Below are positions 1,986 to 61,539 of a stretch of 64,000 nucleotides of DNA, one piece after another. The notes beneath the pieces were generated by a model that saw nothing but the letters and a program-made list of their open reading frames with translations, was not told the DNA's origin and did not search any database. The translations under genes and the position numbers were made by a program. This DNA is from Squalus acanthias (lineage: Eukaryota). Every line of letters begins with the position of its first letter. The first letter of the stretch is position 1. Where the stretch lies: the NCBI GenBank assembly GCA_030390025.1, contig CM059432.1, positions 73,038,001 through 73,102,000 of the forward strand. The letters are read 5' to 3'.

Positions 1986-2839
1986 ACATGCAGACCAAGG
2001 AGGACCTGGTTTCATCTACGGTTTGTGCTGAGTTTGCTGATCTCACACAGGAATAGAGCTGCAATTGACCGCAATGTCTCAAACTAGAGAGGAGAAGAAC
2101 TGGCTAGTGATCCTGCTCTTAATCTCTGTCAGGTGATTCTTGCTCGTTTAGTAGGGATACCAAAGTTCTTTGCTATAATGCACTGCATTGTTGAATATCT
2201 TGAGCAAGTCAACGTTCTCCCTTTCTCCAATACCACAAAAATGAATAACATGGTCCTTCATCTCATGGATGTTTGTTATAAATTCAAGTCTGTGTAGATA
2301 CTTTCTTAGATTGAGTGGCAGCATTTGCTCTCGTACGCAGTCTGAACATCTTACTTTTATGGGACTCACGCTGCCCTATATTGACCTGTATGATAGCAGG
2401 ACCCAGGGATGTAATAGTCAAAACCCCTTGTGACCTGGATGTCTGTGACTTTCGCACGTGTATTTCTTCAATGTCTCCACTGATGAGGCGAGCCTTGATT
2501 TGAATCAGTACGCTGCTTTATTTCACAGTAAGGTGAACATACAGAGTAACAGTTATGATCAGATTCCCTTAGTTCAATTGGTAAAACTAACTTCACGTAA
2601 TGATAAAAATAATGAATTCTCCATGCTACCCCAGTCTCAAGGGAACTTCCAAATTAAGCTAGCAGCTTCCAAAATAAACAGCAAAACAAACAATTTTGGC
2701 AAAAAAACAAGTACAAGTATGAGCTTCTGTATAACAGCTTAATGAAACACAACAATTCACCTTTAAGATCCTAGCGTCAGCCTTCCTCAGCTACTGTTCT
2801 AAGTTACTACTGCTACCAATAGTACTACAACAATTACAT

Positions 2840-3504
2840 GGGGGAAAAATTAGGTTGCTTTGCGCCTCCAGTTAGCACCCCTGGGGGGCGCAAAGCCCCT
2901 AGCGCCTGGGTGCAGTGCCGCTAACGCTTCCCACGAAATTCAGTGGGAGGTTAGCGGCGCCGGTAGCGCCCTGGTGACGACGTCATTGCCGTGCGCAGCA
3001 CCCCACACGCACCCCACTCACAAACTTCGGTCGCGCCTCCTGACCTACCGCCGGACAATATGTCTAACAGGGTGGTGTTTTTGCGGCCACGGCGGCGCAA
3101 ATTAAAGGGCAGGTGCCGGGCGGCCATTTTTTGGGCCACCTGCCAGCACCTGCCCCCTTCCGCTTTTTTATGCGGGGTGCCGGCCACAATCGGTCAGCCC
3201 GGCACTCCTCTTGAGTGCCGGGCTGTTTTCCCGGCCCCCCGCTCCCCGGTGGTCCAGCAGTGCCCCGGTGCGCGCTGCGCTAGGCCCCTTCCCTGTAATC
3301 AGGGGAGGAAGGCCTGCAATACGCGATGCGCGTAGCACTGTTGCACGTAGCGCCGCGATATTCAATGGTAGCGCCCCAGGGAGGAGGGGGAGCGCTTCCA
3401 GTAGTTGAATTTACGGCGCAGGGGCGCTAACCTTTTCGGGGCGCTAAAAGTAGTGCCCCGGCGAAGTTAACGCTCCAAAGTGGGCGCCATCGAATTTTTC
3501 CCCC
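2840..3504 (+). mobile_element. Harbinger-type MITE, family A (CpG-rich, TAGCGCC-rich)
   Basis: TIR GGGGGAAAAATT / AATTTTTCCCCC; 3-bp TSD CAT (2837-2839, 3505-3507); similar to copies at 32901, 36904 and 54161. Confidence 0.85.
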
Positions 3505-4377: not shown

Positions 4378-5998
4378 ATGCTGTGACCCTGGTCTAAAAC
4401 CCTCACTTGCGTGGGTTGTACCTTACAGGCAAAACGTACATCCTCTCTCACTTCGAGCTGAATTTAGGGTGGAAGTTAAAGTGGCGTAAAACTGCCGTAT
4501 TTGCTCCAAGTACAAAATTCCAACCCTCCACCTGCCAGTTAGATCTGCTGAGTTTACGCTTTACCAAAACATTGGAATTTCGGGCCAAGCGATTTTACAT
4601 GTTTTATAATTAAGCTGCTGATTTAGTTTTTTTAAAGCTTAAACCAAATAATTATTCAATTGAAGTAAGCCAACGGCAACATATATTGATATATCAATGC
4701 AACATACTGGAGTTTTAGGACATGGGCTAGAACCCACCACTCTCACGTGGCAAGTTCCATGGGAGAGCAGGTGTTGGAAGAAAAGTGAATACAAGGGATG
4801 AAGAGAAAATCAAAAGTAGTCAACCTAAGCCACTCACATGAACCCCTAGGAGATGAGTACAGAAAAGAATTCCGAGAGATCTGGGAGAAAATTACTGGTC
4901 CAAGCTCTCAGTTCAAGGAATGATGTGCTGCTATGCATTAAAAGTAAGGAAAAAAATCTTGAGGTGCTGTATCTATTACATAGTATATGCAGCACAGAAA
5001 CAGGCCATTTGGCCCAACAGGTTCATGCTGGTGTTTATTCTCCACACGAGCCAGCTTTCACCCCTTCTTCATCTAACCTCATCAAGATATCCTTCTATTC
5101 CTTTCTCCCTCATGTGTTTATCTAGCTTCCCCTTAAATGCATCCATGCTAGTCGCCTCAACTACTTCTTGTGGTAACGAGTTCCACATTCTAACCACTCG
5201 CTGGATAAAGGAGTCTCTGCCAAATTCCCTATTGGATTTATTAATGACTATTTATGGCCCCTAGTTCTGGTCTCTGCCGCAAATGGAAACATCTTCTCTA
5301 CATCTACCCTTTCATAATCTTAAAGATGTCTATCAGGTCACCCCTCAGTCTTCTCTTTTCTAGAGAAAAACGCCCCAGCCTGTTCATACTTTCCTGATAG
5401 GAATAACCTCTCAGTTCTGGTATCATTCCAGTAAATCTTTTTTGCATCTTCTGCAGTGCCTCTATATCCTTTTTGTAATATGGAGATCAGAATTATGCAC
5501 AGTACTCCAAATGTGGTCTAACCAAGGTTCTATATAAGTTTAACATTACTTCTCTGCTTTTCATTTTTATCCCGCTCGAAATGAACCCCAGTGCTTTGTT
5601 TGCTTTTTTTTTTAATGGCATTATTAACCTGTGTTACTACTTTTAGTGATTTGTGTGTCTGCCCCCGCAGATCCTTCTGCTCCTCTACCCCATTTAGACA
5701 CTTAGGCCGGAATTTTCTGTACCTGGGCGGGGCGGATGCGGGCAGTCGGTGTGGCGGGTCACGACCCCGTTGCTGCTTCTATCCTACTGCAGAAAATGAC
5801 TTTGCGATAATGGGGCCTATTAAGCCCGCCCTGCGCGTTACCCAGCCCAATTAAATGGCGCGGGTCTGATGACATCATCCATGACATGCTTTCTGCTGGT
5901 ATATTTAAAGGAGCCATGGCCACATTGCATTTGAAGGTTCATCTCGGAGTGTGCAAGCAGCACACTGGAGGTTTTCATTGCTCCAAACAGTTGGAGAG

Positions 5999-7868
5999 AT
6001 GGCTGCACAGAGGCAGAGAGCTGCACCCAGGTTCTCCGATGACTCCCTCCATATCCTTGTGGAGGGAGTCAGAGCACGCATGGAGGTCCTCTTCCCTTCC
6101 AATGGGCGGAAGAGACCTCGCCAGGAGACAAAAAGAGCCTGGCTCCAAATTGCAGAGGAGGTCAACAGCAGGGATGTTGTGAGGAGGACCTGGGTGCAGT
6201 GCCGCAAACGTTTCAATGATCTCATTAGATCTGGAAAGGTGAGTACAAAGCCCACTCAACTTCATCCTGCTGTGCCTCTCATCACATCCCCATCACTCTG
6301 CCTTCCCAACCCTACTCCTGCCCATCCTTACTCACACCAACATACCTTGCAAGTACACCCATCCCCCTCTCTCTATCTACATTATTACATCTCCATCTTA
6401 CTAGCCACCCCTCACACTCACCCTCATCCTAATGCAATCATATCAACTAACACCACACAAGGAGGCCACTTGGCATTGCCACCCCAATCCATCATAGTCT
6501 CCCTCTAAAGATGTAACCCATCCATTCCTTACACTCATTGCATCACTCTCACTCAACCTTCTCTTCTTTCCCTCCTTGCAGGAAAAGAGAGCCCACAATA
6601 AGAGGGAGAGGGAGAGGGAAAGAACTGGAGGTGGGCCTCCATCATTTGCGACCCTCACAACAGCAGAGGAGGCTGCGTCGGAAGTCTTGGGAGTGGCTGA
6701 ACAGCTGGAGGTGGGAGACGGAGAGAGGGGGACATCTCAGCAACCTGGTGACAGAATTACATATCATACAGCTACATGGCATACATTAGTCACTCATATG
6801 GGGACTGATGTCATCAGCCACTGAATGGTCATCATGTGCATAATGGTATGTGCACCCATTCTTCATATGGCATATCTAACTCATCTCTTTACTCTCCCAC
6901 AGGTCCATCAAGAGCCCGCACCCCCCCCCCCCCCCAATGTCCAGGAGGAAGAGGAAGACGACTTCTCAGAGGAGCGTCCAGCCTCTGAGGGCGCAGCTTC
7001 ACCAGACATGCGCGCACCCAGCACCAGCGCAGAGATGCACATCTTCAACGCGAGATATAGTGTTGTCACTGGGTCCATCACAAGTGAGCAAGAGCAGATG
7101 GTGGAGACAGGGACAGCAGTGTAGACTCCTCGCCTGAGGACACAGGACGCTCCCAGCTCTGCTCAGCTGCATGCAGACGCTGAGCCTCGGGGGCCATCCA
7201 GAAAGAGGGCGATCCTGGAGGTGCAGGAAGAAGTGCAGGAGGCTCTGACAGGCTTTGCGAGTGCGATGTCTGCAAATGTTCAGAGAATGAAGGAGTCCAT
7301 CTCCAACATGAGCACCACCATGTCGCAGGCGATGGTGACTGTAGGCTCTTCCATGGATAGGATAGCCACCTGCATGGAGCAGCTAATGCGCCACTTACAT
7401 GAGCACATGCTATCTATGGAGCATAGATGGCAGAGGCTCATAGACCTCCTGTCTAGAAGGGATGTTAGTGTAGACGTGGGTCCTCATGGCCCCACTGATG
7501 TGCAGCAAGGTGCTCTCCAGCTCCTTGCTAGCAGGGAAATGCAGGTGGCCTATGAGAGGGATGATGGTGAGAGGGGAGAGGGTAGTGTGGGCTCCTCTCA
7601 AAGCACTTACACTTCTCCCCCGTTGCCACCCGCTCAGTCAGAGCCCCAGATGGCTCCTTGGATCGCGATGGTCGAGTCTGCCCCTGCACAGTCGCAGGAG
7701 GAGCAGACTTTGGCGGGGCCATCACAGGCTCCAAAACCCAGAGGACGTCTGCCAACTGTGTCTAAGCAGTCGCAGCAGGGAAGTGAGCAGGCTTCCTTTA
7801 CTTCTGCTGAAGCCACAGGGGTAGTATCTCATAGAAGCACGCGGAACAGAAAGATGACACACAAGTAG
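5999..7868 (+). pseudogene. Harbinger Myb/SANT-like DNA-binding protein gene, 3 exons (5999-6238, 6582-6747, 6903-7868)
   Basis: Exon 1 MAAQRQRAAPRFSDDSL..AWLQIAEEVNS..RTWVQCRKRFNDLIRSGK|GTGAGT; exon 2 EKRAHNKRERERERTGGG; both introns GT-AG. Exon 3 is frameshifted at the C15 run (6921-6935) and has an in-frame TAG at 7122-7124. Confidence 0.85.
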
Positions 7869-8149
7869 ATTCACAAGGGTAGCCACTTGGGTGTTTTAGT
7901 CAATGTTAATGGATTGTCAACCATTAAAATCTTTATTTTCACCACTTTCCCGGCTTGGACACATTTATGTGCACCTTTGGAAGTGGCTTAGTGAGTTGCA
8001 GTGACTGGTGAGACATAACGGAACCTCCAGCAATGGAGGTCAGTGTGAAAGGAATGACTTGGTTATTGTAGGGATCATTTATGATGTTGCTGTGGGGTGG
8101 TGCCAACCTGGTGCTGCATGTGGCAGCCATATGGGTGTACAGCATAAAG

Positions 8150-8364
8150 TTAAGTAAATCTGGACATGATGAGGCCATCCCTGGCCTCCCGGGCAGCAAT
8201 GTGCTCGGGTGCTGATGTCCTCTGTCCTGTGCAGCATCAGGTGGTTGCGGAGAAGGTTGGTGGTGTTGTTGTTGGTGCTGCTGGTGTGCCTGGTGCTGCT
8301 GGTGTTGGGGCTCATCGTGGTCAGATTCTGAGGACCAAGGTGAAACAGTATAAACGGCACCCAT
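8150..8364 (-). pseudogene. Harbinger transposase remnant: N-terminus fused out of frame to C-terminus, DDE core missing
   Basis: MGAVYTVSPWSSESDHDEPQHQQ..PPDAAQDRG matches the N-terminus of the 59396-60602 transposase (MGTIYFLSPWTSDSDEEQPQQQ..PPDAAQGRR). A shifted frame reads APEHIAAREARDGLIMSRFT*, matching its C-terminus AREHMAARDARDALILAIFA*. Confidence 0.85.
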
Positions 8365-10039
8365 GTTGATGGAAGAGATGGCAGGTCAAGTAGAGTTGAC
8401 AGAAGCAATCTGTCAATGGTGAGAGAGGTTCTTCCAATGAGGTGACACTGGATGGAGACTTTGCTGGAAACACTTGCAGCCTGCAGAAAGTTAAATTTGT
8501 GCTGGCAATGTAGTCAGCAACAGCTTCTGCCTGAGGAAAGTGATCAGCTGTGAGGTGGGTACTTTTATAGTACATTTGATGCTGTCAACTAATCAGCTGG
8601 AGCAATGGCTACTCAACGCCATTGAGTGGCCACTTCCGCCTCAGGTTGACAGACGTGGTTCCCGAGCTGCGTGAATCCCGTGGCCATGCAGGGAAATTTG
8701 AAATGTAGGGGGAAAAATGCTCTTAAGTGTCTGACACCAAGTTTATAATGATTTCAATTAGATCGCCCGCCTCTGCTGGTTGGGTCGCTGATGCACCAGC
8801 AAACGCTCCCGAGGGAAAGGCGCGTGGGGGTGGGATGATGGCGGGTTCCCAACCCCTTCCGACTTTTTTCAAATTTCCCACCCGACCCACCTCCGATCGC
8901 GCCCGCACGGACGCCAGAAAATTCCAGCCTTATTCCCAAGAAATATGTGGCCTCCTTATTCTTCCTAACAAAATGTACCACCTCACACTTATCTATATTG
9001 TTCATTTGCCAATTACACGCCCATTCTGCAAGTTTATTAATATCTTCATGTATTTTGTCACAGTCCTCCTCTGTATTAACCACACCCCCCAATTTGGTGT
9101 CGTCCGCAAATTTTGAAATTGTACTTCCGATTCCTGAGTCCAAATTGTTTATCTGCTTCTGGGCCTAAGCTGCTGGTCAAAAAAAATACCCAATACTGGG
9201 ACTCAGTTTATTCTTGCAATTGATTACAGTAGTGCAACTACTAAATATTAAAAAGCAAGGCCTACACTGATAAATATTACAACAGATTGGTGATTATTCA
9301 CTGTTCAATTAGGGTCATAACAGCATACAAGTCATTTAAATTTCATAAAAGTCTTCCTTAAGCAGACAGTTTCGTAGTACTACTCAACATTTTGTAAACA
9401 TTCTCTTTGAATTATTAACATATAAACTGCATCTATCAAACACACATGAAAGACCCTGATTAAAGTTAATAACAGACTCACTCACTCAGCTTTCTTCTGT
9501 GCACTGCAAGTGGTTTATTTATATGCTTCCGCCATTTAACCTTAATGCCACCACAACAGTAGATCAGTGAAAAGTGAAACTTTATTCATATTTAAGCATC
9601 AGCATGGAAAACCCATCCTAAACTTAAAAATAATTCAAACAGTACCTTACGAGCCCCTTTAATTTGAAATCATCTGGGCTTAGTAAAAAATGCACCGTAC
9701 AGACAGAGGTACAATATCACGTTTGTATGGTAAAGCCAATGAATTATAAATATAGTTTCAGTTGTGACTAAACCAATGATGACCAGATCAAGCAAAGGCC
9801 AATTTGATTCATGTATTGACCTTGAAACCAACTCTACAATGAACTCTGAAGGCCTATTCTTGGACACATCTGTATCCTGTTTGTAGCTTTTTGATTATAA
9901 AACAATAAACCCCTAAATTTAAAAACAATCCTTTTTGAGGAAATTAAATTATTTTGTACTACACATCTACTGACCCTCTAAATCTCTCTTTTATTTTACT
10001 TTTAAAGATTTAATTCCATTCATTCTGAGCTCATTAATA

Positions 10040-10903
10040 TCAGTGGGCGGGGGGGGCGGGTCGGGAGAAGATCAAGTGGTTGAGCCGGGAGAAGATCGAG
10101 GGGTTGAGCAGGGAGAAGATCGAGGGGTTGAGCCGGGAGAAGATCGAGGGGTTGAGCAGGGAGAAGATCGAGGGGTTGAGCCGGGAGAAGATCGAGGGGT
10201 TGAGCCGGGAGAAGATCGAGGGGTTGAGCCGGGAGAAGATCGAGGGGTTGAGCCGGGAGAAGATCGAGGGGTTGAGCCGGGAGAAGATCGAGGGGTTGAG
10301 CCGGGAGAAGATCGAGGGGTTGAGCCGGGAGAAGATCGAGGGGTTGAGCAGGGAGAAGATCGAGGGGTTGAGCAGGGAGAAGATCGAGGGGTTGAGCCGG
10401 GAGAAGATCGAGCAGTCGAGCCGGGAGCGGCAAAAAGATTGGGGCTGGAGGAGGATGGGGAGTCCGAAGAGAATCGGGGGCCAGAGGAGCAGCACGGGGA
10501 GGGCCGGAGGAGGTTGGGGGGGGAATCGTTTGGGGATTGGAGGCCTGAGGGGAGTGGGTTAGGCAGGGACCCTGGATCCAGGAGTTAGGTGTAAAGACAC
10601 TTACCTCGTGGATGCAGCAGTCCTTGCCTTGCTGTAGCTGGCGGGTTTCACGAGGTGTGCAAAACTCGACCAGCTACAGTTAAAGACTAAATGGAGGTTA
10701 AAGAAGAGGCTGTCAACCTCATTATAATACTTAAATAGACGGCCTGCCTCCTGGCAGTGGGTTGGCTGCCCGCCTCCTGTCCCGCCTCCATTAAAACTGA
10801 AGTGGGTGGGTTGGAGGCGGGTTCTGGTCAGGATTCCGATATTTAACACTTTAACTATCCGCACGCCTCCAACCCACCCTTTTTTTTAGGTTAAATTCCC
10901 GCC
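10040..10903. mobile_element. Harbinger-type MITE family F, left end lost, carries a minisatellite
   Basis: Right ~300 bp are similar to the right ends of the 11303, 23657 and 29290 copies; ends TTAAATTCCCGCC. Confidence 0.7.
10064..10428. repeat. 24-bp minisatellite, ~15 copies
   Basis: Unit GAGAAGATCGAGGGGTTGAGC(C/A)GG, near-perfect tandem copies with no spacers. Confidence 0.95.
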
Positions 10904-11214
10904 AATGCACTGTTTGTGGGGAAAAAGAAACATGGTGATTCACTGATGTAAAATGACTGTTCACATTTAGGAGGGCACATAACATCATTAATTAATAAAT
11001 AATTAACACTTATACTCACAGAAAGTTTCTTAAAGGAACAGCAGAACTTTTCAAGTGAATAGATTGCAGTTTACTTTGCACATTCAGTTAAAAAAATGTT
11101 TTCTCCTGATTTGAAAACACAGACTATTTGCCACATAGAGAATTGTTTGGCTCTTGACCTAGCTGCTATATAATAGGCCTACAAGAATAAAAGTAATAAT
11201 TCCTCTACTGAAAG

Positions 11215-11970
11215 TTTTGTTGAAGGGTCCACACTTGAAATGTTAACTCATCTGTTCTCTCCATCGATGCTGCCTGACCTGCTGAGTGTTTCCAGTATTT
11301 TTGGCTGGGATTTTCCCGTTTCCCACCCACCTGGAGTGGGGGGGGGGACCCGGTAGACCGCAAGAAACCCAGAAGTCCGGGTTTCCCGGCACGCTGTGGA
11401 GTTTTAATTCCACAGCGTGCGTTTGACGTAATGGGCGGGTTTGCCGCCCGGAAGTCAGCTTGATTGACAGTCTGGCTTCCAGTCGGGCAGGAAACGCTGG
11501 CTGACCAGGATGTCGCAGCAACAGTTAAGTGCTGGGTCCAAGGCGGATGGGGGTGGGGGTCTGATTCCTGGCCCCGGGGCGGGAAAGAGGTGAGATCCTG
11601 CTCCTCCCGGCCAATAAGGATTGCTCCCCGAAGCTGTTCTCGCCTCGCTGCAACTACCGGGAATGCCGAGCCCGGGATCCCTGGCCGCCTGCAGTTAAAC
11701 CTGCACAGCAGATTAAAGTAGAGGCTTCAGGCCTCATTATAATATTTTAAATGCCAACCCACCTCCTGGCAGCGGGTGGCTGCCCGCTCCCCCTTCCCCC
11801 CCCCCCTGCCTGAGTAAAAGTTGAAAGTGGGCGGGTTGGAGGCGGGTTTTAGATTTTTACAACTTTCACTTCCATCTCCCACCTCCAACCCACCCCTTTT
11901 TTCATGTGAAAATTCCCCCCTCTGTTTGTTTCACATTTCCAGTATCTTCAGTTTTTTTTGCTTTTTGCCA
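11215..11970 (+). mobile_element. Penelope-like pLTR/3' fragment (11215-11302 and 11921-11970) split by a MITE
   Basis: tgaagggtc..tgaaatgttaac..gatgctgcctgacctgctgagtgtttccagtattt, then after the MITE ctgtttgtttcacatttccagtatct; the same motif occurs at 45222-45304. Family assignment is from memory of shark repeats. Confidence 0.55.
11303..11920. mobile_element. Harbinger-type MITE family F
   Basis: TIR GGCTGGGATTTTC / GAAAATTCCCCCC; flanks TTT/TCT. Confidence 0.75.
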
Positions 11971-13319
11971 ATAATGAAGGCATTAGGTTGTGTCCCTTGA
12001 AGTAAGTAGCTTGGGTTACTTGACAGAATTTTAGGTGTAATTGTATTTTACTAGATTAATGTCTACTTTCAAATCTTTCATGCTGTTCTAATTACTACAG
12101 TTCTTACAATGTTGTGCAACAGGATCATGAAACCAGTTGGAGCTCCTCTAAGACCTTTCTGCAATTTTTTATTTTTTTTACAGTACATACAGATGTTCCT
12201 ACTGTGGAACAAACAAAATACAAATCAATAAAAATAATGTCAATTAAAAAAACCACGCACTGCAAGAGGTATTATTCCAGTATCCTGAATTACTCAAATG
12301 GGTTTCAGGTTAAAATAAACAATTGAAACACTAAAAACAAATGAAATGAGTTGTGTCATGTATGTTGGATGAAGTACCGTTTTTGAATTCATTTCTTTAA
12401 CGTGCAAGTTCAAACAGCCATGTATTTACATTGGTGAATTGACATTTGATTGACAGTAAGGCCTGGGATAAATGGAGCTCACAGGATGGAGTGGAAGAGA
12501 CTGGTGCTGGCCCAATGGGCCTAGGGCACTACAGCACCCACAGACGTGCAGGTACTATTACAATCATCATAACATCTGGTGAAATTTATGCAAATCGGTC
12601 TTCTAAAGTCAAGTTTGTTGGCAAAGTTTTAAGTACAGCAATTTAAGTAATTGTTTAATATCACATAACACTAGCATATGTTTCACTGACCCTTCATGGC
12701 CTGAAGGAAAATTTTTGCAACATGTCCAAAAACAACTTAATGGTACGATTTTCACTTTTTAAAGTGTGTGTAATTAACAGACACGTGCTTCAAATGTTCT
12801 CAACATGTTCTTGTACTGAGCTAAAGTATTCAGCAGCACTCTTTTCCAAAATATCAATTCAGGAAATAAAACTGTAATGGAAAGCACATTTATTTGTCAC
12901 AAACTTTAAAAAGTCGTATCAGTTTTCATAGGTTCTAATATATAAGCTAAATCCAAAGCTGGAAAAATAGTGGCCTAGAAATTAGATATAGCCACAAAAT
13001 GGGCAGTGTTAAGGCCAAAAGATGTTAAATGCGCCACCTGAAAATGGTCTAGGTGCACGCAAAATTCGTGCTCGCTCTTGATTAACATGATTATAGTCAT
13101 GATTTCAGCGCTAAAACTGCTACTCATTAGCTTAACGCTCACCAGGTGGACCAGTATCGGGGCCAGTCTAATTCACAGTCATGTGTGCCAGGGGCTTTTT
13201 CCACTACTTAAAGGAGAGGTGCATTGATGCTACAGCACCTCATTGTCAGGGCAGTTGGGTTTACAGCTGCCCCAACAACCAGAAGAAGAAGCTCAAGGAC
13301 AAGCAAGAGTAGTGTACAC

Positions 13320-15424
13320 ATTGCAGATCATCACACCAGGGAGAGAGCCAGGAGGTTCTCCAATGAAGTGCTGGAGGCACTCGTAGTGCCCGTGGAGAGG
13401 AGCTAGGTTGTCCTCTACCCACAAAGTGGCAGGAAGCCCTTGCCCTATACGTCCCGTACCATGTGGCAGGAGATGGCGGACCATGTGACGGCCAGCACTG
13501 TGGTGCCACGGTCCGCCATCCAGTGCAGGAAGAAGTTTAATGACCTCACATGGGTGGGCAAGGTGAGTGAAGACTTCAGCAAATCCCACATACCACCATC
13601 TGCACCACAAGCCTCATATACTGCTCAAGGCACCACACCCCCAGCACTCACATACCAACAATCTCTACCTGTTACCACTCGCATCTCAGTCGCAGCTTCA
13701 CTTCACGCTCACAACCTTGCCACTGCTGCAACAATCACACCCACATCTCACACCTTGCACACACTGACAGCTATTCAACACATTGCACTACACTCACATT
13801 TCTCTTTCTCTTGCAGGCCAAGCTGGCACATAATCGCCAGGAGCAGTAGCAGATAGGCAGGGACCAGGCAGACATGCAGGATTTTATCCAGCTGTTGGAT
13901 TGAGCACTCCAGCTAACTGGATGGCACGTGGTAGAGGCTGTAGTAACCAGCGAGGTTCAACCCCTTGGGGACAACAACAGTATGTTCATTCCTAATCCTT
14001 CTTCTCACGTCCCACTTACACCTCAGCCCACAATCTTTTCGCACTTTCAAGCTACTCATGCTGTATGCATGCATATCTGGCTTCACCGCACCCCGCCAAC
14101 CCCCCCCGCTCCCCTCACCATAACCCGACTCTTGTGCCTTTCTGCTTTCAGATAATCAACAAGCACCCGAGCAGCCGGTCCCTGATGTCATCGAAGAGAA
14201 CAAGAGGGGGGGGGGGGGGGGGGGGGGAGAAGAGGAAGAAGAAGACACCGTGTCACTGCATCTGTCACTCGCAGACACCAGCTCAGAAACTGGCACTGCG
14301 CGTACTTTGGAGGCTAGTGTAGATGTGGGATCTGCACAGGGTGAGGCACCGGGCACAAGTGGACTGGAACAAGGCCAGGGGCAAAGGGTAGCTCGGGAGC
14401 CAGCTCCCCAGAGGGTGAACTTGCGCATGAGATCTGCTGCACAGGACTCAGATGAGGACCTCGATGGGGAGGTCTTCATAAGAAGGGCGATGGGCATGCA
14501 CACCGAATTGATGAGTGCAATGGCAAGCCTGCCAGAGAGCATCTCGGCAATGTCAAGGATCGTGGAGGAGTCCGGCTCCAACATTGCACGGGGTTCTGCG
14601 CAGAGCATGGAGCCCAGGATTTCCAGCCTGGAATTGATGGTACACTCCCAAAGAGACCATGGCAACCAACGTTCCCTCTAAGCTGTGCGAGTGCACGGCC
14701 GCGTGGTAATCTGCAAGGTCCCGCGCAGCTGCTCACAAGCTTTTACATTGGAAATACCGTGCAGGCGGAGAAATTTAATGGGAAGAAACAGGCTGCACAG
14801 AACATAGTGCAGTCTACAGGGAACAGTGGTGACGACCCAGATGTGATGGTGTGAATGATGGGCGATGTTGCAGCTTCCATTGCAGCACAGGCGGAAGTGA
14901 CCCAACGTCTTAGTGCTGCAGCAGAAGCTCAGACTGCTCTCGTGTCTCTGCTTGGTGCCATCGAAACTCAGACTGCTCTCATGCAGTCTCAGCTTGAAGT
15001 CACCCAAGCTCAGACTGCTGCCATCGTGGCTGGGTTTACCACTGTCGACCAGGGCTTTCAGGGTGTCGCAGCAGGCCAGCAATCTGTGCTCCAAAAGATT
15101 GCTAGGAATGCTATGGCACTGTCCTGGGTGAGTGGCAGTGGGTCATTGGAGCAGGACCCTGCTGTCCTCTCTCACGATGACTGTATTCCTGCTCCCACCT
15201 CTGCCACTCCGCCATTGCCTTACCACTGTCTGTCAGCCAGCCAGTCCAGACTGCTGCCGCCCATGCCAAGGTGGTGCAGTCTACAACTGGGCCTTCTCGG
15301 GCCAGAGCTGCTCGAGGTCATCCTGCAAGGCCATCTGAAGTCTCCCGCACGGAAACTCAGCAGCCTTCCACCAGCCACTGGGGGAGCACTTCGTAGGAGC
15401 AATAGATTAGGAAAAGCCACATGA
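13320..15424 (+). pseudogene. Harbinger Myb/SANT-like gene of element C (exons ~13320-13562, 13817-13979, 14152-~15424)
   Basis: RERARRFSNEVLEALV..MWQEMADHVTA..RSAIQCRKKFNDLTWVGK|GTGAGT; exon 2 AKLAHNRQEQ. The start codon reads ATT, there are several in-frame stops, and a hAT MITE sits in exon 3. Confidence 0.8.
14667..14828. mobile_element. hAT-type MITE
   Basis: TIR CAACGTTCCCTCTAAGCTG / CAGTCTACAGGGAACAGTG; 8-bp flanks ATGGCAAC / GTGACGAC differ only by transitions, consistent with a decayed 8-bp TSD. Confidence 0.65.
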
Positions 15425-15919
15425 AAGACAGGCACTATGGCTGGAGTTTTACCGGTGCTGTGAGGGCGGGATAAGGGGTGGGTCTGCTGTCAAAATAGAA
15501 AAGATTGACAGCGGGTCAGGAACCCGCTGTCAAGCCGCCTCCACACGAGCCCCCAGGTGTCGGGTCTGTCAGCGCTGAACAGACCCGACACCAAGCAGCA
15601 GGGGAGACAATTTAGATCATTAAATACATTAAGAGGCAATTAAGTCTTATTTTAAGCTTACCATTAGATTTTGAGAGTTCGCCAACGGCTTCCATGCTGC
15701 TCGTGGATCACGTCAGTTAAGGAGGTCGGGTGTTGTGTCAGCACGGGATGATTTACTAACTTGACAGCTTCAAATGGTCTATAAAAGCTCCCATTTCATA
15801 GGTCTTCACTTTCCAAGGTTAGAAGCTCTTGCTTACTGCATTTGGAAGACAGATTGAGCTTTATGCAGCTAGCAAGTGTTTGGAGTAAATTCTCTATCCA
15901 GTGTCACCTCATTAGGTTG

Positions 15920-16177
15920 ATTTGGCTATGATAAAATTGACCCTTAGTGTTAGGGGGGATTAAATATGTGGGGTTATGGGGATAGGATGGGATATGTTAG
16001 GGGGAATTAAATACGTGGGGTTACGGGGGTAGGGTGGGATATGTGTACTGTGGGGATTAAAGCAGGGACAGGGTACTGGATTTGGATGATCAGCCATGAT
16101 CGTATTGAATGGCGGAGCAGGCTCGACGGGCCGAATGGCCTACTCCTGCTCCTAGATTCTATGTTTCTATGTTTCTA
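15920..16177 (+). mobile_element. SINE/CR1 3'-tail fragment inside element D
   Basis: taaaattgacccttagtg..ggggatagg repeats followed by the CR1 tail gatcagccatgatcgtattgaatggcggagcaggctcg..ttctatgtttctatgtttcta. Confidence 0.65.
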
Positions 16178-16247
16178 TTGGAAGAACTCCCTCACCACTG
16201 ACATCGCTTCTGTCATCTCAACCTCACCTGCCATCTATTCCATCAGC

Positions 16248-16441
16248 ATCAGTGCCCTTGAAAAAATCTCACCTTGGTCCTCAGAATCCCACCATGATCA
16301 GCCCCAACACCAGGCACACCAGCAGCACCAACATCAACACCAACCTTCTCCGCAATCAACTGATGCTGCACAGGACACAGGACATCAGCACCCAATTACA
16401 TTGCTGCCTGGGATGGCCTCACCATAGCCAGATTTACTTCA
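16248..16441 (+). pseudogene. Harbinger transposase remnant with the same internal deletion as element B
   Basis: SPWSSESHHDQPQHQAHQQ..DAAQDTGHQH joined through CAGCAC (16386-16391) to C-terminal sequence ..gggatggcctcaccatagccagatttact. Confidence 0.8.
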
Positions 16442-16949
16442 CTTGATACTGTACACCCTGGCTGCCACATGTTGTGCCAGGTTGGCACCACCCCACACCA
16501 ACACCATAAAGCATTCCTACAATGCCCAAGCCATTCCTTTCACACTCATCGCCATTGAGGGGGAGGGTACCCTTATGTCTCACCATTCACTGCAACTCAC
16601 TAAGCCACTTCCTAAGGTGTATATAAATCTGTCCAAGAACGCAAAGTGTTGAAAATAAAGATTTCAATGTTTGACAGCACATTACCAGAAACTTCACATG
16701 AACATTGGCTAAACCACACAAGTGCCTACCCTTGTGTGTTGTTAGTTGGTATGCTTGCAGTAGGATGAGGGTGAGTGTGAGGGGTGGCTAGTGAGATGGA
16801 GAAGTGATAATGTAGATAGAGAGGTGATAATGTAGATAGAGAGGGATAGGTGGAGGTGCAAGGTAGGTTGGTGTGAGTAAAGATGTGCAGGAGTAGGGTA
16901 GGGAAGTCGGAGTGAGGGGGAATGTGATGAGGTTGAGTGTGGCTTGGCA

Positions 16950-18590
16950 GTAACGTTTCGTGATCTACTGAGATCATTGAAAGGTTTGCGCCACTGCAGC
17001 CTGGTCCTCCTGACAACATCCCTGCTTGTGCCCTCCTGTGCAATGTGCAACCAGGCTGCGCTGGTCTCCTTTGGAAGGGAAGAGAACGTGTAACCCCACT
17101 ATTTAAAAAAGGTGGTAGAGAGAAAACGGGAATTATAGACCGGTAAGCCTGACATCGGTAGTGGGGAAAATGCTAGAGTCCATTATAAAAGATGTAATAG
17201 CAGAGCACTTGGAAAACAGTGACAGGATCGGACAAAGTCAACATGGATTTACAAAAGGTAAATCATGCTTGACTAACCTACTGGAATTTTTTGAGGATGT
17301 AACTGGTAGAATAGATAAGGGAGAACCAGTGGATGTGGTGTATTTGGACTTTCAGAAGGCTTTTGATAAGGTCCCGCTTAAGAGATTTGCGTGCAAAGTT
17401 AAAGCACATGGGATTGGGGGTAAGGTACTGACTTGGATAGAGAACTGGTTGGCAGACAGGAAGCAAAGAGTTGGAATAAACGGGTCTTTTTCCGAGAGGC
17501 AGGCAGTGACTAGTGGGGTACCGCAGGGATTGGTGCTAGGACCCCAGCTATTCACAATATATATTAATGATCTAGACGAGAGAACTAGATGTAATATCTC
17601 CAAGTTTGCAGACGACACAAAGCTGGGTAGGCGTGTGTGCTGTGAGGATGCAGCAGAGAAACTCCAGTATGATTTGGACAGGTTGGGTGTTTGGGCAGAT
17701 GCATGGCAGATGCAGTATAATGTGGATAAATGCGAGGCTATCCACTTTGGTGGCAAAAACAGGAAGACAGATTATCTGAACGGCAATAGATTGGGAAAAG
17801 GGGAAGTGCAACGAGACCTGGGTGTCCTTGTGCACCAGTCGCTGAAGGTAAGCATGCAGGTGCAGCAGGCGGTTAAGAAGGCAAATGTTATGTTGGCCTT
17901 CATAGCGAGAGGATTCGAGTACAGGAGCAAGGATGTCTTGCTGCAGTTGTACAGGGCCTTGGTGAGACCACACCTTGAGTATTGTGTGCAGTTTTGGTCG
18001 CCTTATGAGAGGAAGGATGTTCTTGCCATGGAGGGAGTGCAGCGAAGATTCACCAGACTGATACCTGGGATGGCAGGAATGACGTATGAAGAGAGATTGG
18101 GTCGATTAGGCTTATAGTCGCTCGAGTTTAGAAGAATGAGAGGGGATCTCATTGAAACTTATAAAATTCTAACAGGACTAGACAGACTAGATGCAGGAAG
18201 GATGTTCCCAATGGCCGGGGAGTCCAGAACCAGGGGTCACAGTATAAGGATAAGGGGTAAACCATTTAGGACTGAGATGAGGAGGAATTTCTTCACCCAG
18301 AGAGCGGTGAACCTGTGGAATTCTCTACCACAGAAGGCAGTTGAGGCCAATTCATTAAATATATTCAAGAAGGAGTTAGATATATTTCTTAAGGCTAAAG
18401 GGATCAAGGGATCAAGGGATATGGGGAGAAAGCAGGGACAGGGTACTGAATTTGGATGATCAGCCATGATCTCATTGAATGGTAGAACAGGCTCGAGGGG
18501 CCGAATGGCCTACTCCTGCTCCTATCTTCTATGTTTCTCCCTGCGTGCTGTGATTCCCTCCATGCATGGGAGAGCCTGGGTGCAGTGTTT
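16950..18590 (-). pseudogene. Myb/SANT exon 1 of element D, split by a CR1; exons 2-3 absent
   Basis: EGITARRE (18537-18560), then the CR1, then VLFPSKG..HIAQEGTSRDVVRRTRLQWRKPFNDLSRSR (17087-16950). Confidence 0.75.
17089..18536 (+). mobile_element. 5'-truncated CR1 LINE (RT domain and 3' tail)
   Basis: ORF 17161-18117 with QHGF..KSCLTNL, VYLDFQKAFDKV, GVPQG, SKFADDTKL; one in-frame stop, then 18136-18459 in the same frame; ttctatgtttc tail. Confidence 0.95.
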
Positions 18591-19052
18591 GTCAGAGTTT
18601 GCAGCACCTCAATGCTGTAGAATACTGACAGCACAACTGTCAAAGTAAATTTGGACATGGTCCCTTTAAGGAAACCGGCTGATGACGCGTCATCAAATGA
18701 CGTCATCAGACCCGCTTCCTTTTAATTGGCAGGGAACCTCGCTGGGCAGGCTTAACAAGCCCAATCAACATAAAATCACTTGGAGAGTGTGGGCTGGAGC
18801 AGGCAGCAGGCTAGGACTGCGCTACCGACCCCGGCCGGCGAAATCGCAGCCTAAGGGATTGCGCAAGGGTGGTTAGTTCATATTGTAATGTAAATATGCG
18901 TGAATTGATTTGTGATAAATTTATTAATTTTGTTTGGTATCTTTTGAGGTGTCTCGCATTTCAGCTTTGTGCCCAGGTGAGTGCTGTGACATTCCGTGAG
19001 GCACGGATGGTATGATGGGGATGTGGTGAGCAACGGGGATCTGGGGTTTCAT

Positions 19053-20232
19053 TCATTGGAATCGGAGTCTGATGAGGCATTCACGGAGAGCCCGTCCGGA
19101 AGGATGATTGGCTGCCTGCCTCCTCCCTCCCTCCTCTTCCTGTTGCTCCTCGTCGTCCTCCTTTACCTCTTTCTCCCCGTCCTCCTACTCGTCCTCCTCC
19201 GGAGGTGGTCCCATAATCCCTGGTGGAAAGGGCTGTGTCCTAATGATGGCCTAAGTTGTGAAGCATGCAGCAGACCACCACAAAATGGGACACCATCTCC
19301 GCCGAGTACTGGAGGGCTCCTCCCGTGCGGTCAAGGCAGCGGAACCGTTGCTTCAGTAGCCTAATGGTCTGCTCAATGTTCCTCGTGGCAGCATAGCTCT
19401 CATTATACGAGTGCTGGGCACAAGTGTTGGGGTTGCTGAGGCGAGTAATGAATCAGGTGCAGAGCGGATAGCCCTGGTCTTCGAACAGCCACCCTCGAGT
19501 TTGTTGTGGTGGCTGGAAGATTGCTGGCACACCGGAGTGACACAGGATGAAGGCATCATGGCTACTGCCAGAATAGCAGGCATGATTGACATTGAGGAAT
19601 CATTGTGTGTGGTCGCACACCACCTGTACATTAAGTGAGTGGTAGTCTTTGGGTTATGGAAGATGTCAGGATTGTTATGCGGTGCCTGCAAAGCCACGTG
19701 TGTACAGTCGATGGCACCCTGCACCATGGGGAAGCCCGCTATCCTGGCAAAGCCACATGCGCACTCATCTTGCTCCTCTCTGCTCAGAGAGAAGAAAACA
19801 TAGTCCCTTTTCCTGGTGTAGAGAGCCTCAGTGACCTCCCGGATGCAGCGATGGACGGCGAACTGTGAGATGTTAGCTATGTCTCCTGCTGCAGACTGGA
19901 AAGATCCTGGCAAAGAAATTGAGGGCCATGGTGACCTTGACTGCCACTGGGAGAGCCATGGTCGCCCTGCTCTTAGGCTGCAGGTCTGGTTGCAGGAGGT
20001 GGTAGAGTTCTGTGACCACCTCCTTGGTGAAGTGTAGTCTCCTAATATACTGCTCCTCGCTTAAGTGGAGGTAGGAGAAGTGCTGTTGGAAGACCCTAGG
20101 TGGGTAAGGCCTCCTGTTGAGAGCCCTCATGGCTCTCCTCCCTCTGCGCGCACATTACCGTCTTCCTTACTGCCTCCGCTCCCTCTGCCGAAGATCCTGG
20201 AGCGCGAGGTCGACTGCCAGTACAACCCCTAT
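19053..20232 (-). pseudogene. Harbinger DDE transposase (HARBI1-like family) of element C, decayed
   Basis: RRPYPPRVF..LPVAVKVTMALNFFA..GSFQ..FPMVQGAIDCTHV..SLNVQVVCDH..HDAFIL..DQGYPL..IEQTIRLLKQRFRCLDRTGGALQYS..LHN, with frameshifts and stops. Confidence 0.9.
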
Positions 20233-21888
20233 GACTGAGCAAGTGTTGTGAGCAGAAGCCTTTAAAAAATAATGAAGGCGTTCTGCACTTGCAATAAAAC
20301 TCCCTGTTACCATAGAACCTTGAAAGAAGCTGTTGGAGTTGCAGAAAGTAGCACACAGCCAGTCAAACTGCAGAACCATGTCAGGTGCAACTGATTGCTG
20401 ATGATCCCTTTAAATATCACTGCTGGGGCCTCCTTCCTGCTTTTGAACACTTGCTCTGCCTCTCGTTGTTTAGGCAAGTTTAGGTTGTAAGTTGAACGGC
20501 AAAATCCAATGCTATAGGTTGGGCGTCACTTGAGCGTTGCACACTCACTTACGTCACGATCTGGTTAATTTCAATTCCTCCAACGGCCGCGTTTATCGGC
20601 AGCGCTGCCGGCCCCCGCAAAATGGCGGCCGCCGTGGGACCCACCACCAGCTGGCGGAAGAGCGGCAGCCGCCATTTTTTCGCCATATTATGCCGGTAAC
20701 GGGTGGCGTTAAACACTCGAATTTTTAGCCCAGTAAGTTTGCCACTGACATGCGCTGTGAACTTAGGAGCGTTTCTGGTGATTCCAGAGAATTGTGTGTT
20801 CTGACTGACAAGATTTTGTAAAGTATTATTTTGATCAGAGGCCTATCTATTCCTGACAACAGCCACTTTCATTTCAAACTGAGAAACTCTTCACTTTTGT
20901 ACAAAGACCCATCATTATTGCTGTCATTTACTATAATCTATATCAAAGCACTTGTGCGTTGGCTCTAACTAGTAACTACTACTTTGCTGTTTCTGTTCTG
21001 GCCAGCTGTTCCCTACTTCTGCACATTGTACACCAGTTGGCGGACGGGGAAACCAATGTGGGTAGCCCTGAGGCTCTGTTTGTTAATGTTACTTACCAGC
21101 TGCTGCCTATGTGGTGGTAGCAAGCAGATCTGGAAGTGTGCCAGCTTTCAGCAGAAGAGGTGTGGTGTCCCTGAAGCCTTCCCTGCCTGTCACCACTTGA
21201 CACAGAGCAGTGGTGAGCATGATCCCCAGGGCTACTGACAGACACTGCTGGAGTTTAATGTAAATACAGTCTACGGCTGTATTTACATGCTGCTAACCAT
21301 GTACTACTGGCAATGACCAAAGCAAAACTCTGCAGACACCTTCAGTGAATATCTGATGATTAGTCAAGCTACCTTCTGCATGCAGCTAAAGATAATACTG
21401 TCACTGTAACTCTTAAAAGGGTGATAGTTTAAAGAATTAACATTACTTTTTGGTTATCTGTTATGCTACAAAACTATTTAGAATCAAATCTGTGAGATAT
21501 GTCTTTAATGCTCTAACCGCCAAGACGTTCAACAAAAGAAATAAGTTTTGCAATGGATTCATTAAACAATGATGGGTGTTGGGTTCTTCTTTTTATGTTC
21601 TCCCCTCTTCTCCTGAAAACACTGGGGTATGGTTCTATGGATACTGGCTGCCCTTTGGTGTCTTACCAAATCAAACTTTTTCACACATGTTGCCAGATTA
21701 TTTAGTCATACTGGATATCACAACCAATCCCAATCCTCTTCTCACCTGACATCCACACATGCACACTTTCGAGCAGGGATCAGTGGATAACAATCAGGAG
21801 TGGGAACATTGACTGAGTCCCCCTTCTTCCCTCTCCCCACCACCTGAAGCTCCACCACCCGAAGCTAAGTTTTATCAACAGGGGGATG

Positions 21889-33829: not shown

Positions 33830-34141
33830 AACACATTGGTAAACTGGAGCAAGAAGGAAAAGATGGAACAGGACACACCCCACCGGAGGGCGAGCTCGTG
33901 TTCTAGCTCTGCTATGGAGGCCACAGATGAGGACCTTCAGGGCCCCGTCGTTAAAAGAGTAGGGATAAGTGTGCACCAACAATTGTTCCGTGTATTGGAT
34001 GGCCTCCCAGGAAGCTTCCACACCATGTCAGACAGTGTGAAGGAATCCACTTCCAACTTGTGCAGGGTCATTGTGCATAGCATCGAGGCAATGCCCTCAC
34101 TAAATCATTTGGCATCTCTCCCTGAACAGGCCACCTGCTAG
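33830..34141 (+). pseudogene. Orphan fragment of a Harbinger Myb-gene exon 3
   Basis: PHRRASSCSSSAMEATDEDLQGPVVKRVGISVHQQL..LPGSFHTMSDSVKESTSNL aligns by eye to PQRVNLRMRSAAQDSDEDLDGEVFIRRAMGMHTEL..LPESISAMSRIVEESGSNI (ORF 14250-14681). Confidence 0.7.
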
Positions 34142-58698: not shown

Positions 58699-58971
58699 GG
58701 GCGCGGTTTTCCCATTGGAGGCGGGTTTCGGTTTGGGTGGGTTCCAAACCCGCCTCTACTGTCAGGTGGGAAAAATTTGCGATTTTCCCCTAATTGGCCA
58801 GGTACTTTCAGAGGTGTAGGTTCCCCTGGGCCAATTAGTCTTTTGGGACTGAAACTCGCCTCTGCTGACGCCATTTATCTAGCTTCATTTAAGGGCTGCT
58901 TGCTGCCTTGGCTCATTCCACTGGTTTTTGGTCGATGGTGCACCACCTCCAAACTTTTATCTCCTTGAAGA

Positions 58972-59211
58972 ATGGCCAGCTCCAAGGCAAGGGCCTCCCA
59001 GAGGTTCTTGGATGAGGCATTGGGTATGCTAGTTGAGGGGGCGAGAGCTAGCAGGGAGGTGCTCTTCCCCTCATCTGGGAGAAAGAGACCTCCCAAAGAA
59101 ACCAAGGCTGTGTGGGTCCAGCTGGCAAGGGATATAACCTCCAGATCAGTGTGCAGCAGAACATGGCTGCAGTGCTGTAAAAGTTTCAATGACCTTGTAA
59201 GATCAGGCAAA
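58972..59211 (+). pseudogene. Myb/SANT exon 1 of element E (240 bp, open); exons 2-3 deleted
   Basis: MASSKARASQRFLDEALGMLVEG..VWVQLARDITS..RTWLQCCKSFNDLVRSGK then GTGAGT; the transposase stop is only ~185 bp downstream. Confidence 0.85.
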
Positions 59212-59395
59212 GTGAGTATACCTTCAGCTTGACCCTCCTTCTGCTCATCACCAGCACTCTGCATTGTCAAGCTCCTCCTCCACATCCCACTTTACCCTTA
59301 CAACTCTTGCACCCTTCACCATCCCTCTCACTCTATGAACCCAATCACTTCACTATTCGACTATCATGTGTTAAGAAGGTGCCACAATGGGCAAC

Positions 59396-60602
59396 CTATG
59401 CAAATATGGCCAGGATGAGTGCATCCCTTGCATCACGGGCAGCCATGTGCTCGCGTGCTGCCGCTGCTGCTGGTCGATACGCCGCCGCTCAGTCCTCCTC
59501 CTCCTCCTCATCTGAGGAGGCTATGAACTGAGCCATTTGCTCATCAGGAAGCTGCAAGCCACGACGCTGTGCCATGTTGTGCAGTGCACAGCAGACCATG
59601 ACCATTCTGGAGACCCTGGCTGCTGAATACTGCAGGGCTCCACCTGATCTGTCAAGGCATCGGAATCGCATCTTCAGCAAGCCAATGGTTTGCTCGATGA
59701 TGGACCTGGTCGAAGTGTGGTTGGCGTTGTAGCGCTCTTCAGCCTCATTAGCTGGCCTCCTGATCAGCCTCATTAGCCACTTCTTCAGGGGGTAGCCCTT
59801 GTCACCAAGGAGCCATCCGTTAAGTTCGTTTGGCGGATAGAAGAGCGGAGGAACACTAGAGTTCCACAGGATGAACGAGTCATGGCAATTACCACAGAAC
59901 TTGGCGCAAACATGCAAAATCTCCTTCTTGTGGTTACACACCAGCTGTACGTTGAGGGAGTAGAAGCCCTTGCGGTTGACAAAGGTAGCTGGGTTGTGAT
60001 GGGGTGCCCTAAGGGCCACATGTGTGCAGTCTATGACGCCCTGCACCATTGGCAAGCCTGCCATATTTGCAAAGCCAACTGAACGCGCGGTTACACTTGC
60101 TTGACCCCTTGAGAAGTGGATGTAATTGTGCGCCTTTGCGAAAAGGGCATTGGTAAGCTGCGTGATGCAACTGTGGGTGGCCGACTGGGAGATGCCACTG
60201 ATGATCCCTGGAAGGAGCCTGAAGCAAAAAATTTGAGTGCGGTGATGATTTTGACAGCCACTGGTAAGGGGTGTCCACCCGCTCCTCTGGGCTCCAGGTG
60301 TTGGTGCAGCAGTGCGCAGATGTCTCCGACAACCTCTCGCAAAAGTCTCAGCTTCCTTTGCACTGCAGCTCAGTCATGTTGAGTTAGCTCATCCTCTGTC
60401 TCTAAACCCTAAGAGGGGGGTATCTCCTGTGGTGACGTGCTTCCATGCGCTGGCGCCTTCTGCCCTGTGCAGCATCAGGTGGGTGAGCAGGAGGTTGGCG
60501 CTCCTGCTGCTGTTGCTGCTGAGCTGCCTGGTTCTGCTGCTGCTGTGGCTGCTCCTCATCCGAATCTGAGGTCCATGGTGAAAGGAAATAAATGGTTCCC
60601 AT
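59396..60602 (-). pseudogene. Harbinger DDE transposase (HARBI1-like family) with polyQ N-terminus
   Basis: Candidate catalytic motifs IDCTHV, GDKGYP and [15 protein letters not shown] lie in the open 59489-60064 frame; stops and frameshifts in the 5' part and one stop near the C-terminus. Confidence 0.92.
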
Positions 60603-61539
60603 GCTGCTGGCAGATTCCTCCGTTGGGGAAGTGCTCAGTCCAAGCGGGGAGAGGGTCTTCCAAGGAGGTCCCACAGTTGAGAGATAGAAGCTGCAGCACC
60701 TCCAACTTCGGTAGGCCTGCTAAAAGTGCTGAAAGACCTGTGGAACAAAAGTTCTGCCAACTGCAACTGCTCCCTGATGAAAGCTCCGTTTTAATGGTGG
60801 AGCTGCAGCTGTGAGGAGGCCACCCACTTGTCAACCCGCCAGGATTAGCTGGCGTGGTTTAGGAGGGTCGTGCAACATGCACAAAATGTGACAAAACAAC
60901 AAAGGCCTGTCAAAATAGGATTATAGAGGCCCTTAACGACTATTTAAGGGTCTTAACTACCTTTCTCGACTGATGGAGGCAGGACCGAATCGCACCCATG
61001 AAACCTGCCTCTGGCAAAATTGCGCGGAGGCGGGTTCTGAACCCGCCCTCACTTTTTGCGATTTTGCCAACTGTCCCGCCTCCAAAGCCGCCTCCTCGGG
61101 GCTGGGAAAATCTCCCCCAAACACTTACAGCTGACTGACAGTTAACTGCCACTGGCAGGCAGCTTCTACTTACCCAACACTTAGCAGAAATTCCCACTCT
61201 TTCAAAATTCCCAAATAAAACACTCTGTTCAAGTCCAATCTGTTTAATCCCGCTCTGTCTTGTCCACATCACAGGCATGCAGAACTGTATACTTGTTAAA
61301 TAATTTCAGACCTCACAGGGAATCCCTAAACTTGCTCATCCTGGATTGATGGTAACCTGTCATCGGTTTCACTTTTTCTTTTCACCTGAGGAGTGATCAT
61401 CTTCTGGAATGCACATTACATTACAGAATTTCTGTGGTTGTTGCTCACACCCATCTGTTTTGAGCACAAGAAAATCCAGCTAGAGACGTTTCTTGAATTT
61501 GTGGTTGTCTTGAATATTCTTAGCTTTCGGGAGCGGCTA

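Follow-up and report, generated by a model that had tools for sequence, protein, structure and literature searches.

Transposition of Harbinger elements requires two proteins, a DDE transposase and a Myb/SANT-like DNA-binding partner (PMC8437027, PMC2836001). The present analysis concerns Harbinger copies in a stretch of 64,000 nucleotides from the shark Squalus acanthias (GenBank assembly GCA_030390025.1, contig CM059432.1, positions 73,038,001 to 73,102,000 of the forward strand), hereafter called the window, from whose first letter all positions are counted. Two of these copies, elements B and D, share a junction at which the transposase core is missing, and D has in addition lost Myb exons 2-3. 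B and D probably represent a non-autonomous Harbinger subfamily that arose by successive deletions; its spread would have depended on its ends and not on a Myb gene of its own.

The sea krait study of Harbinger-Snek is reportedly that of Galbraith et al. in 2021. In Laticauda colubrina, 452 intact copies carry the DNA-binding gene only and 2,263 carry the transposase only (PMC8437027). Like the family described here, Harbinger-Snek is a vertebrate family with multi-copy one-gene variants formed after large deletions and with non-coding derivatives, three types that B, E and D match; the variants of the sea krait are however young and counted as intact (PMC8437027), whereas the three shark copies are old and broken. 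Moreover, the available passages on Harbinger-Snek (PMC8437027) do not give breakpoints; in the shark, both deletions could be placed at short repeats and lie nested within a single lineage. In the nematode Caenorhabditis inopinata, the MADF/Myb-bearing, DDE-less derivatives Harbinger-1M_cIno and Harbinger-2M_cIno have likewise expanded, and the supply of the two functions in trans is called hypothetical by the authors (PMC13668399). Myb-only Harbinger variants are therefore already published (PMC8437027, PMC13668399). The MADF loci of C. inopinata number 19; 14 of them are intact and several are expressed, one copy was seen to move under laboratory conditions, and a single intact DDE gene is left (PMC13668399). 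By contrast, the Myb-complete copy seen in the shark is a pseudogene, DDE-bearing relatives are many, and the doubly deleted form appears to outnumber the Myb-complete one.

Deletions of comparable structure are known from Gnome, Elf and Goblin, miniature inverted-repeat transposable elements derived from Ozma in Aedes aegypti. They arose by internal deletion at microhomologies of 6-8 bp, often mismatched, and their right break lies shortly before the transposase stop codon (28 and 52 bp, compared with ~60 bp here; PMC3814204). Ozma, however, is a one-gene Tc1/mariner element whose parent DNA is available (PMC3814204), whereas the 5' site of the shark parent is deduced from relatives. The MtPH derivatives of Medicago truncatula consist mostly of PIF/Harbinger copies with internal deletions, which abortive gap repair was taken to explain; they show subterminal differentiation and include one mosaic. 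They differ from the shark elements in being plant elements of low copy number, and a shared Myb-retaining lineage is absent from the available passages (PMC2213677). In PIF/Harbinger elements, smaller size goes with higher rates of excision and insertion (PMC10288884). Myb-bearing Harbingers have been reported in newt (PMC5741667). In the elephant shark no Harbingers were found, and a look at other cartilaginous fish was called for; the available passages of that report do not mention non-autonomous or Myb-only copies (PMC9179366). That two-gene Harbingers decay into one-gene and no-gene derivatives is known; the window contributes a case from a shark in which the breakpoints are mapped. A published account of this shark family was not found in the open-access literature, nor was the term 'Myb-Harbinger' for such elements.

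The comparison of B and D uses element E, a third copy, as a yardstick. The features that bear on the transposase deletion are the following.

5705..8929, minus strand (that of the transposase): element B, a Harbinger copy without transposase core, with a three-exon Myb/SANT pseudogene.
8150..8364, minus strand: transposase remnant of B, in which an ATG and 52 N-terminal codons rich in glutamine and histidine (Q/H) are followed, in a different frame, by the 20 final codons.
8209..8214, minus strand: junction hexamer CAGCAC of B.
15439..18851, plus strand: element D, a doubly deleted Harbinger copy with two later insertions.
15914..16176, plus strand: 263-bp insertion resembling a short interspersed nuclear element (SINE), in the transposase 5' leader of D; its tail resembles that of the LINE fragment of D.
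16245..16441, plus strand: transposase remnant of D, with the start codon lost and a 9-bp deletion in the C-terminal part.
16386..16391, plus strand: junction hexamer CAGCAC of D.
17087..18538, plus strand: 5'-truncated fragment of a long interspersed nuclear element (LINE) in Myb exon 1 of D, with approximate borders and a reverse transcriptase-like open reading frame of 332 amino acids.
58699..61118, minus strand: element E.
59396-60602, minus strand: transposase of E, broken by stops and frameshifts.

The traits of PIF/Harbinger elements are present, namely a 3-bp target duplication (usually TWA), short terminal inverted repeats (TIRs) starting with GG and a Myb/SANT-like gene. The first-pass annotation had described B and D as separate insertions in opposite orientations, each with its own TIRs and site. 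For B this is fully borne out: its 15-bp TIRs agree at 14 of 15 bases, TTA flanks it at 5702-5704 and 8930-8932, and its insertion site is a LINE fragment. Four public runs were placed on B, comprising 65,657 contigs of X1, 85,083 of X8, 2,774 of X17 and 105 reads of X22. X1 may share the source of the window and is not independent of it; the X22 reads are mostly simple-repeat matches and were left out of the depth comparison. Contigs of X1, X17 and X8 show the empty site, with the flanks joined without the element (5704 to 8936/8944). D also occupies a site of its own in the opposite orientation, nested in element C, whose Myb stop codon precedes it by 14 bp, but its TIRs are poorer (10 of 15 bases alike) and its flanks, TAT and TAA, are a duplication with one mismatch. 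Its core measures ~1.7 kb once its two later insertions are discounted. The LINE fragment of D resembles further LINE pieces within the window; 17087..18538 may be CR1-like, and 15914..16176 may be SINE-like. CAC followed by the target triplet (TTA, TAT and TAT, respectively) precedes B, D and E, at 5698-5704, 15432-15438 and 58692-58698, which suggests a common target preference.

The remnants of B and D align to both ends of the transposase of E and switch from one end to the other at CAGCAC. At this point codon ~52 is joined out of frame to the C-terminal codons (20 in B), with 992 bp missing relative to E, that is, 2 modulo 3. The DDE_Tnp_4 domain found by Pfam in E (59576-60034) falls within the missing stretch, and neither Pfam nor homology searches matched a DDE transposase of DDE_Tnp_4 type in B or D, where the termini alone remain; these are homologous to E and to the gene models P0003, P0004 and P0007. 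Across the junction B and D are 85% identical, compared with 70-81% for E and B. Thus, these alignments agree with the earlier claims that both copies lost the DDE core in a common deletion of about 1 kb and that the N-terminus of the remnant continues out of frame into the final ~20 codons. The accompanying claim of a microhomology at both breaks holds at one side only in its exact form. The 3' site of E reads CAGCAC, but the 5' site reads CAGCGC, alike at 5 of 6 bases, and a second 5/6 site, CACCAC, lies 21 bp beyond it, so that the deletion measures 971-992 bp, or ~0.97-0.99 kb. The shifted-frame N-terminus of P0003 fits the CACCAC reading of the 5' break site, and the P-A-P of P0007 at the 3' site is compatible with CAGCAC. 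A microhomology of 5-6 bp in the parent is therefore likely.

The junction recurs outside B and D. Contig 15 of X17 spans 8050-8280 of B and bridges the junction in register; it has 39 letters that differ and 4 gap letters, and so is neither B nor D. Among 131 proteins fetched, 15 match the remnants and three alignments cross the junction, two of them being true junction copies, both in gene models of Pristiophorus japonicus. The C-terminus of P0131 crosses it in register (71% over 55 amino acids), and so does the N-terminus of P0007, in antisense. The third, P0003, had been flagged by the extension of its alignment; as its sequence departs from the remnants immediately past the site and includes the DDE core, it was not counted as a junction copy. 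The junction is thus known in at least five distinct copies, all in one register: B, D, X17 contig 15, P0131 and P0007. The junction copy of P0131 is annotated as the last exon of an immunoglobulin-superfamily gene model and that of P0007 as the first exon of a transposase model, in antisense; both may be annotation artefacts or exonised copies.

Relatives that carry DDE together with B-like ends were found in the C-terminus and 3' untranslated region (UTR) of P0007 and in the N-termini of P0003 and P0004. The C-terminus and 3' UTR of the B remnant are 73% identical over 49 amino acids to the end of the DDE transposase P0007; deleted and DDE-bearing members therefore coexist in P. japonicus. 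The closest relatives of the E transposase are shark gene models, many with DDE, and those of B Myb exon 3 (8 matches) come from Heptranchias, Pristiophorus, Carcharodon and Heterodontus. A local duplication producing D from B, which would have confined the junction to these two copies, is ruled out by their 85% interior identity, their separate sites, the later insertions and the three further junction copies. These observations support the earlier proposal that one shared deletion spread as a non-autonomous lineage. Metagenome contigs gave no match to the junction pattern and 598 pattern matches to Myb exon 1, none of them confirmed; for a repeat of vertebrates such contigs carry no information. 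Full-length copies would be marked by loose ends at the transposase junction, and the 24 loose ends listed of 6,247 include none there, too few to be used.

The fate of the Myb gene differs between the copies, and the following features are needed to describe it.

5999..6238, plus strand: Myb exon 1 of B, open, with a Myb/SANT domain (PF13873, E 5e-14) and a GT donor.
6456..6474, no strand: first copy of a near-repeat of ~18 bp, in Myb intron 1 of B, bounding the second deletion of D.
6582..6747, plus strand: Myb exon 2 of B, its donor placed by homology (tblastn with P0122 and P0128).
6903..7868, plus strand: Myb exon 3 of B, matching the shark Myb-like proteins P0121, P0122 and P0125.
7872..7890, no strand: second copy of that near-repeat, 1,416 bp from the first and immediately behind the Myb stop codon of B.
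16719..16737, no strand: second junction of D, where the transposase 3' UTR is joined to Myb intron 1.
16955..17086, minus strand: 3' half of Myb exon 1 of D, decayed (68% over 37 amino acids to B exon 1, no Pfam match).
58972-59211, plus strand: Myb exon 1 of E.

B and D had both been annotated as Myb-only elements. B fits this layout; D does not. The two near-repeat copies of B agree at 16 of 18-19 bases, and D corresponds to a 1,416-bp deletion of Myb exons 2-3 between these repeats, followed by the LINE fragment that splits its exon 1; homology searches of D gave no match to Myb exons 2-3. The corresponding joint, 6437 to 7872 with the letters of D, was found in one contig each of X1 (depth 1,043) and X8 (depth 21); eight long X1 pieces listed have depths of 15-106. 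One further X1 contig, with depth 236, joins 6304 to 7954 and lacks 1,649 bp; the Myb exon 2-3 region was therefore lost more than once. E also is without Myb exons 2-3, its Myb intron 1 abutting the transposase stop codon at 59396, which is not the break place of D; its loss of these exons was thus independent. Since the intron runs into that stop codon, E is itself an incomplete element. The window thus holds three types, the Myb-retaining B, the transposase-retaining E and D with neither gene, and shows no bias towards keeping Myb.

An intact Myb frame was not found in either junction copy of the window: D is truncated, and B has a premature TAG at 7122-7124 in exon 3. At position 7122, 98% of the X1 depth reads G, so that this nonsense codon is private to B and the family majority is without it; the frame of further copies may accordingly be different. 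The C15 run at 6921-6935 in exon 3 moves the frame by +1 if splicing follows the homology-guided model, but not with an alternative donor after 6710, which keeps exon 3 in frame. Among the majority differences private to B in the Myb exons, 16 of 18 are non-synonymous and one of these is a stop (40 rows listed of 1,250), as would be expected for a dead copy. That X17 consists of RNA is a guess. The depth of X17 runs parallel to that of the DNA run (Spearman 0.78), its exon and intron bins stand in the same ratio to DNA (3.5 and 3.6), and the 15 joints listed of 1,220 include none at the predicted introns of B; none of this was taken as evidence for or against expression.

Selection on the Myb gene was examined through the ratio of non-synonymous to synonymous substitution rates (dN/dS). 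For exon 1, B and E give 0.12 (80 codons, p 6e-10), which shows selection while the families were active. B and D give 0.89 (37 codons, p 1), a value dominated by decay after insertion. The first-pass annotation had looked to a dN/dS below 1 on branches after the deletion as a sign of a maintained gene; the B-D value is weak in this respect, since both copies decayed after insertion. It gives a weak indication that no selection is seen after B and D parted and is compatible with selection in a Myb-complete clade. In line with such decay, the contigs are on average ~92% like B, a divergence of roughly half the B-D distance. The family is large and its two nested deletions are clean markers, which makes it a test bed for selection on Myb after loss of the transposase, a point that is still hypothetical in C. 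inopinata.

These data are best accounted for by a stepwise history. A copy would first have lost ~1 kb of transposase between look-alike sites of 5-6 bp, probably during gap repair after excision, closed by microhomology joining; B and D share the resulting junction, and a single origin is the likely explanation. Descendants then inserted at new sites with 3-bp duplications of their own, and the transposase would have been supplied in trans, since none is left in cis. One descendant later lost Myb exons 2-3 between the ~18-bp repeats, and this doubly deleted form was copied too, as seen in D and in the public runs; it seems commoner than the Myb-complete one. The Myb gene of B would accordingly have been cargo awaiting deletion in a lineage that needed its ends alone. 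Both proteins would have come from full-length relatives, and shorter forms would have been favoured. That B and D represent such a serially deleted subfamily, independent of its own Myb gene, is the reading that we consider probable.

In favour of this reading, the ratio of the median depth of the 9 bins kept in D to that of the 12 bins lost in D is 2.1x in X1, 5.2x in X8 and 6.1x in X17. This is an indication only, because depth is not copy number and full-length and E-type copies contribute to the kept bins as well. Several observations weigh against the reading. In X1, the depth of Myb exons 2-3 is still high (median ~412,000), and the majority base removes the stop of B, so many Myb-complete copies with the frame open at 7122 existed. 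The contigs are too short to link the junction to Myb exons 2-3 outside B, and among the copies seen there is no second one that has the junction with a complete Myb gene or that lacks one gene only. The B-D dN/dS mixes decay after insertion with lineage history over its 37 codons and is weak, the 18 changes private to B come from the 40 listed rows, and the microhomology of the parent is read from a relative of 70-81% identity and from proteins read back. Finally, plain descent leaves unexplained that the end regions of B and D (5705-6075 and 8436-8929 versus 15439-15913 and 18539-18851) differ at 275 of 778 columns (35%) and their interiors at 113 of 756 (15%; Fisher p 2e-20).

This gap is not CpG decay, as the ends diverge outside CpG sites too (non-CpG Kimura two-parameter distance of 0.43-0.45 versus 0.13-0.17). 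Moreover, in X1 the terminal bins of B are ~7 times shallower than Myb exons 2-3, and B-like ends seem to be absent from most copies of the family in the runs. Either subterminal turnover is fast in this group or interiors were exchanged between subfamilies. In the latter case, the deleted interior (junction, 3' UTR and Myb intron 1) would have moved by gene conversion, or by template switching in gap repair, between subfamilies with different ends, and Myb could still be mere cargo. A mosaic PIF/Harbinger element is on record in Medicago (PMC2213677). However, the identity of B and D falls gradually, from 0.92 to 0.54 over ~500 bp with no sharp step, and in the comparison of B with E, too, it is the ends that diverge most, which suggests fast subterminal turnover across the group; exchange of interiors seems to us rather unlikely. 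Faster divergence of ends than of interiors would in any case bear on how non-autonomous elements follow changing transposases. The shared junction itself could have arisen more than once if the same 5-6-bp microhomology were used repeatedly. Microhomology joins are repeatable in principle, and the Myb exon 2-3 region was lost in at least three ways (the D type, the E type and the X1 joint 6304 to 7954). Nevertheless, two random sites in the E transposase share 5 of 6 bases with a chance of 0.0066, which leaves thousands of equally good site pairs in 1.2 kb and makes reuse unlikely; all five copies are in the same register, and the interiors of B and D are 85% alike, compared with 57-81% to E. 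Recurrent deletion at a hot spot is thus very improbable.

The remaining alternatives give the retained sequences a function, as did the first-pass annotation, which saw in the lineage a possible helper or repressor. As a helper, the transposase-less, Myb-complete copies would have been kept for the DNA-binding subunit that they provide in trans, D-type copies being later parasites. All three Myb exons of B survive with their splice sites, exon 1 matches PF13873 strongly, the premature stop is found in B alone, and D must descend from a Myb-complete template that bore the junction; in C. inopinata, supply in trans was proposed for an expansion of MADF-only copies (PMC13668399). On the other hand, the sole Myb-complete junction copy is a pseudogene as far as seen, X1 and X8 again contain the doubly deleted form and the parts kept in D are the deeper ones in X1, X8 and X17, dN/dS between B and D is 0.89, and full-length relatives carry their own Myb and need no helper. 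A trans-acting protein, furthermore, gives its own element no special advantage. A helper lineage is therefore doubtful, and we give as little credence to the variant in which a transposase-less, Myb-complete clade was selected as the main source of the DNA-binding subunit for transposase-only copies and doubly deleted parasites, and followed one active family after another by exchanging its ends while the deleted interior persisted. Truncated repressors exist for other DNA transposons, and the Myb protein of the deleted copies, or a short Q/H-rich N-terminal transposase peptide, could titrate the active complex. Around the remnant, B and D both still have a TATA-like box (8570 and 15779, respectively) and an AATAAA (near 7940 and 16651, respectively), and a 140-amino-acid frame is open across the junction in B. 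Yet the start codon is lost in D and P0131 looks D-like there, the fusion frame is without Pfam match and none of 37 candidates is related to it, and the remnant holds none of the known domains. A repressor role is scarcely credible.

Beyond B, D and E, the window contains one further large Harbinger and several smaller pieces.

12972..20731, no single strand (Myb plus, transposase minus): element C, host of D, an older two-gene Harbinger of another family with both genes broken.

D landed in the short stretch between the two convergent genes of C. Read by eye, AGT lies on both sides of C, not TWA. At 33850-34100, tblastn with P0128 and P0122 matched a lone piece of Harbinger Myb exon 3 around which no element ends are visible. 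GC-rich non-coding elements with Harbinger-like ends lie at 2836-3503, 32900-33482, 36904-37555, 54196-54524, 56400-57250 and 50794-51700; the first four match one another at 66-85%, and 57161-57250 matches the end of E at 79%. Two arrays of a unit of ~18 bp (10062-10427 and 23819-24276), 67-69% alike, are each inside a GC-rich element. The window is in all a repeat-rich stretch. An exon on the minus strand at 503-790 has a translation similar to the part of vertebrate TOX that precedes the HMG box, and ESM Atlas gave no usable name for it. If this exon belongs to TOX, the elements would sit in a long intron of that gene.

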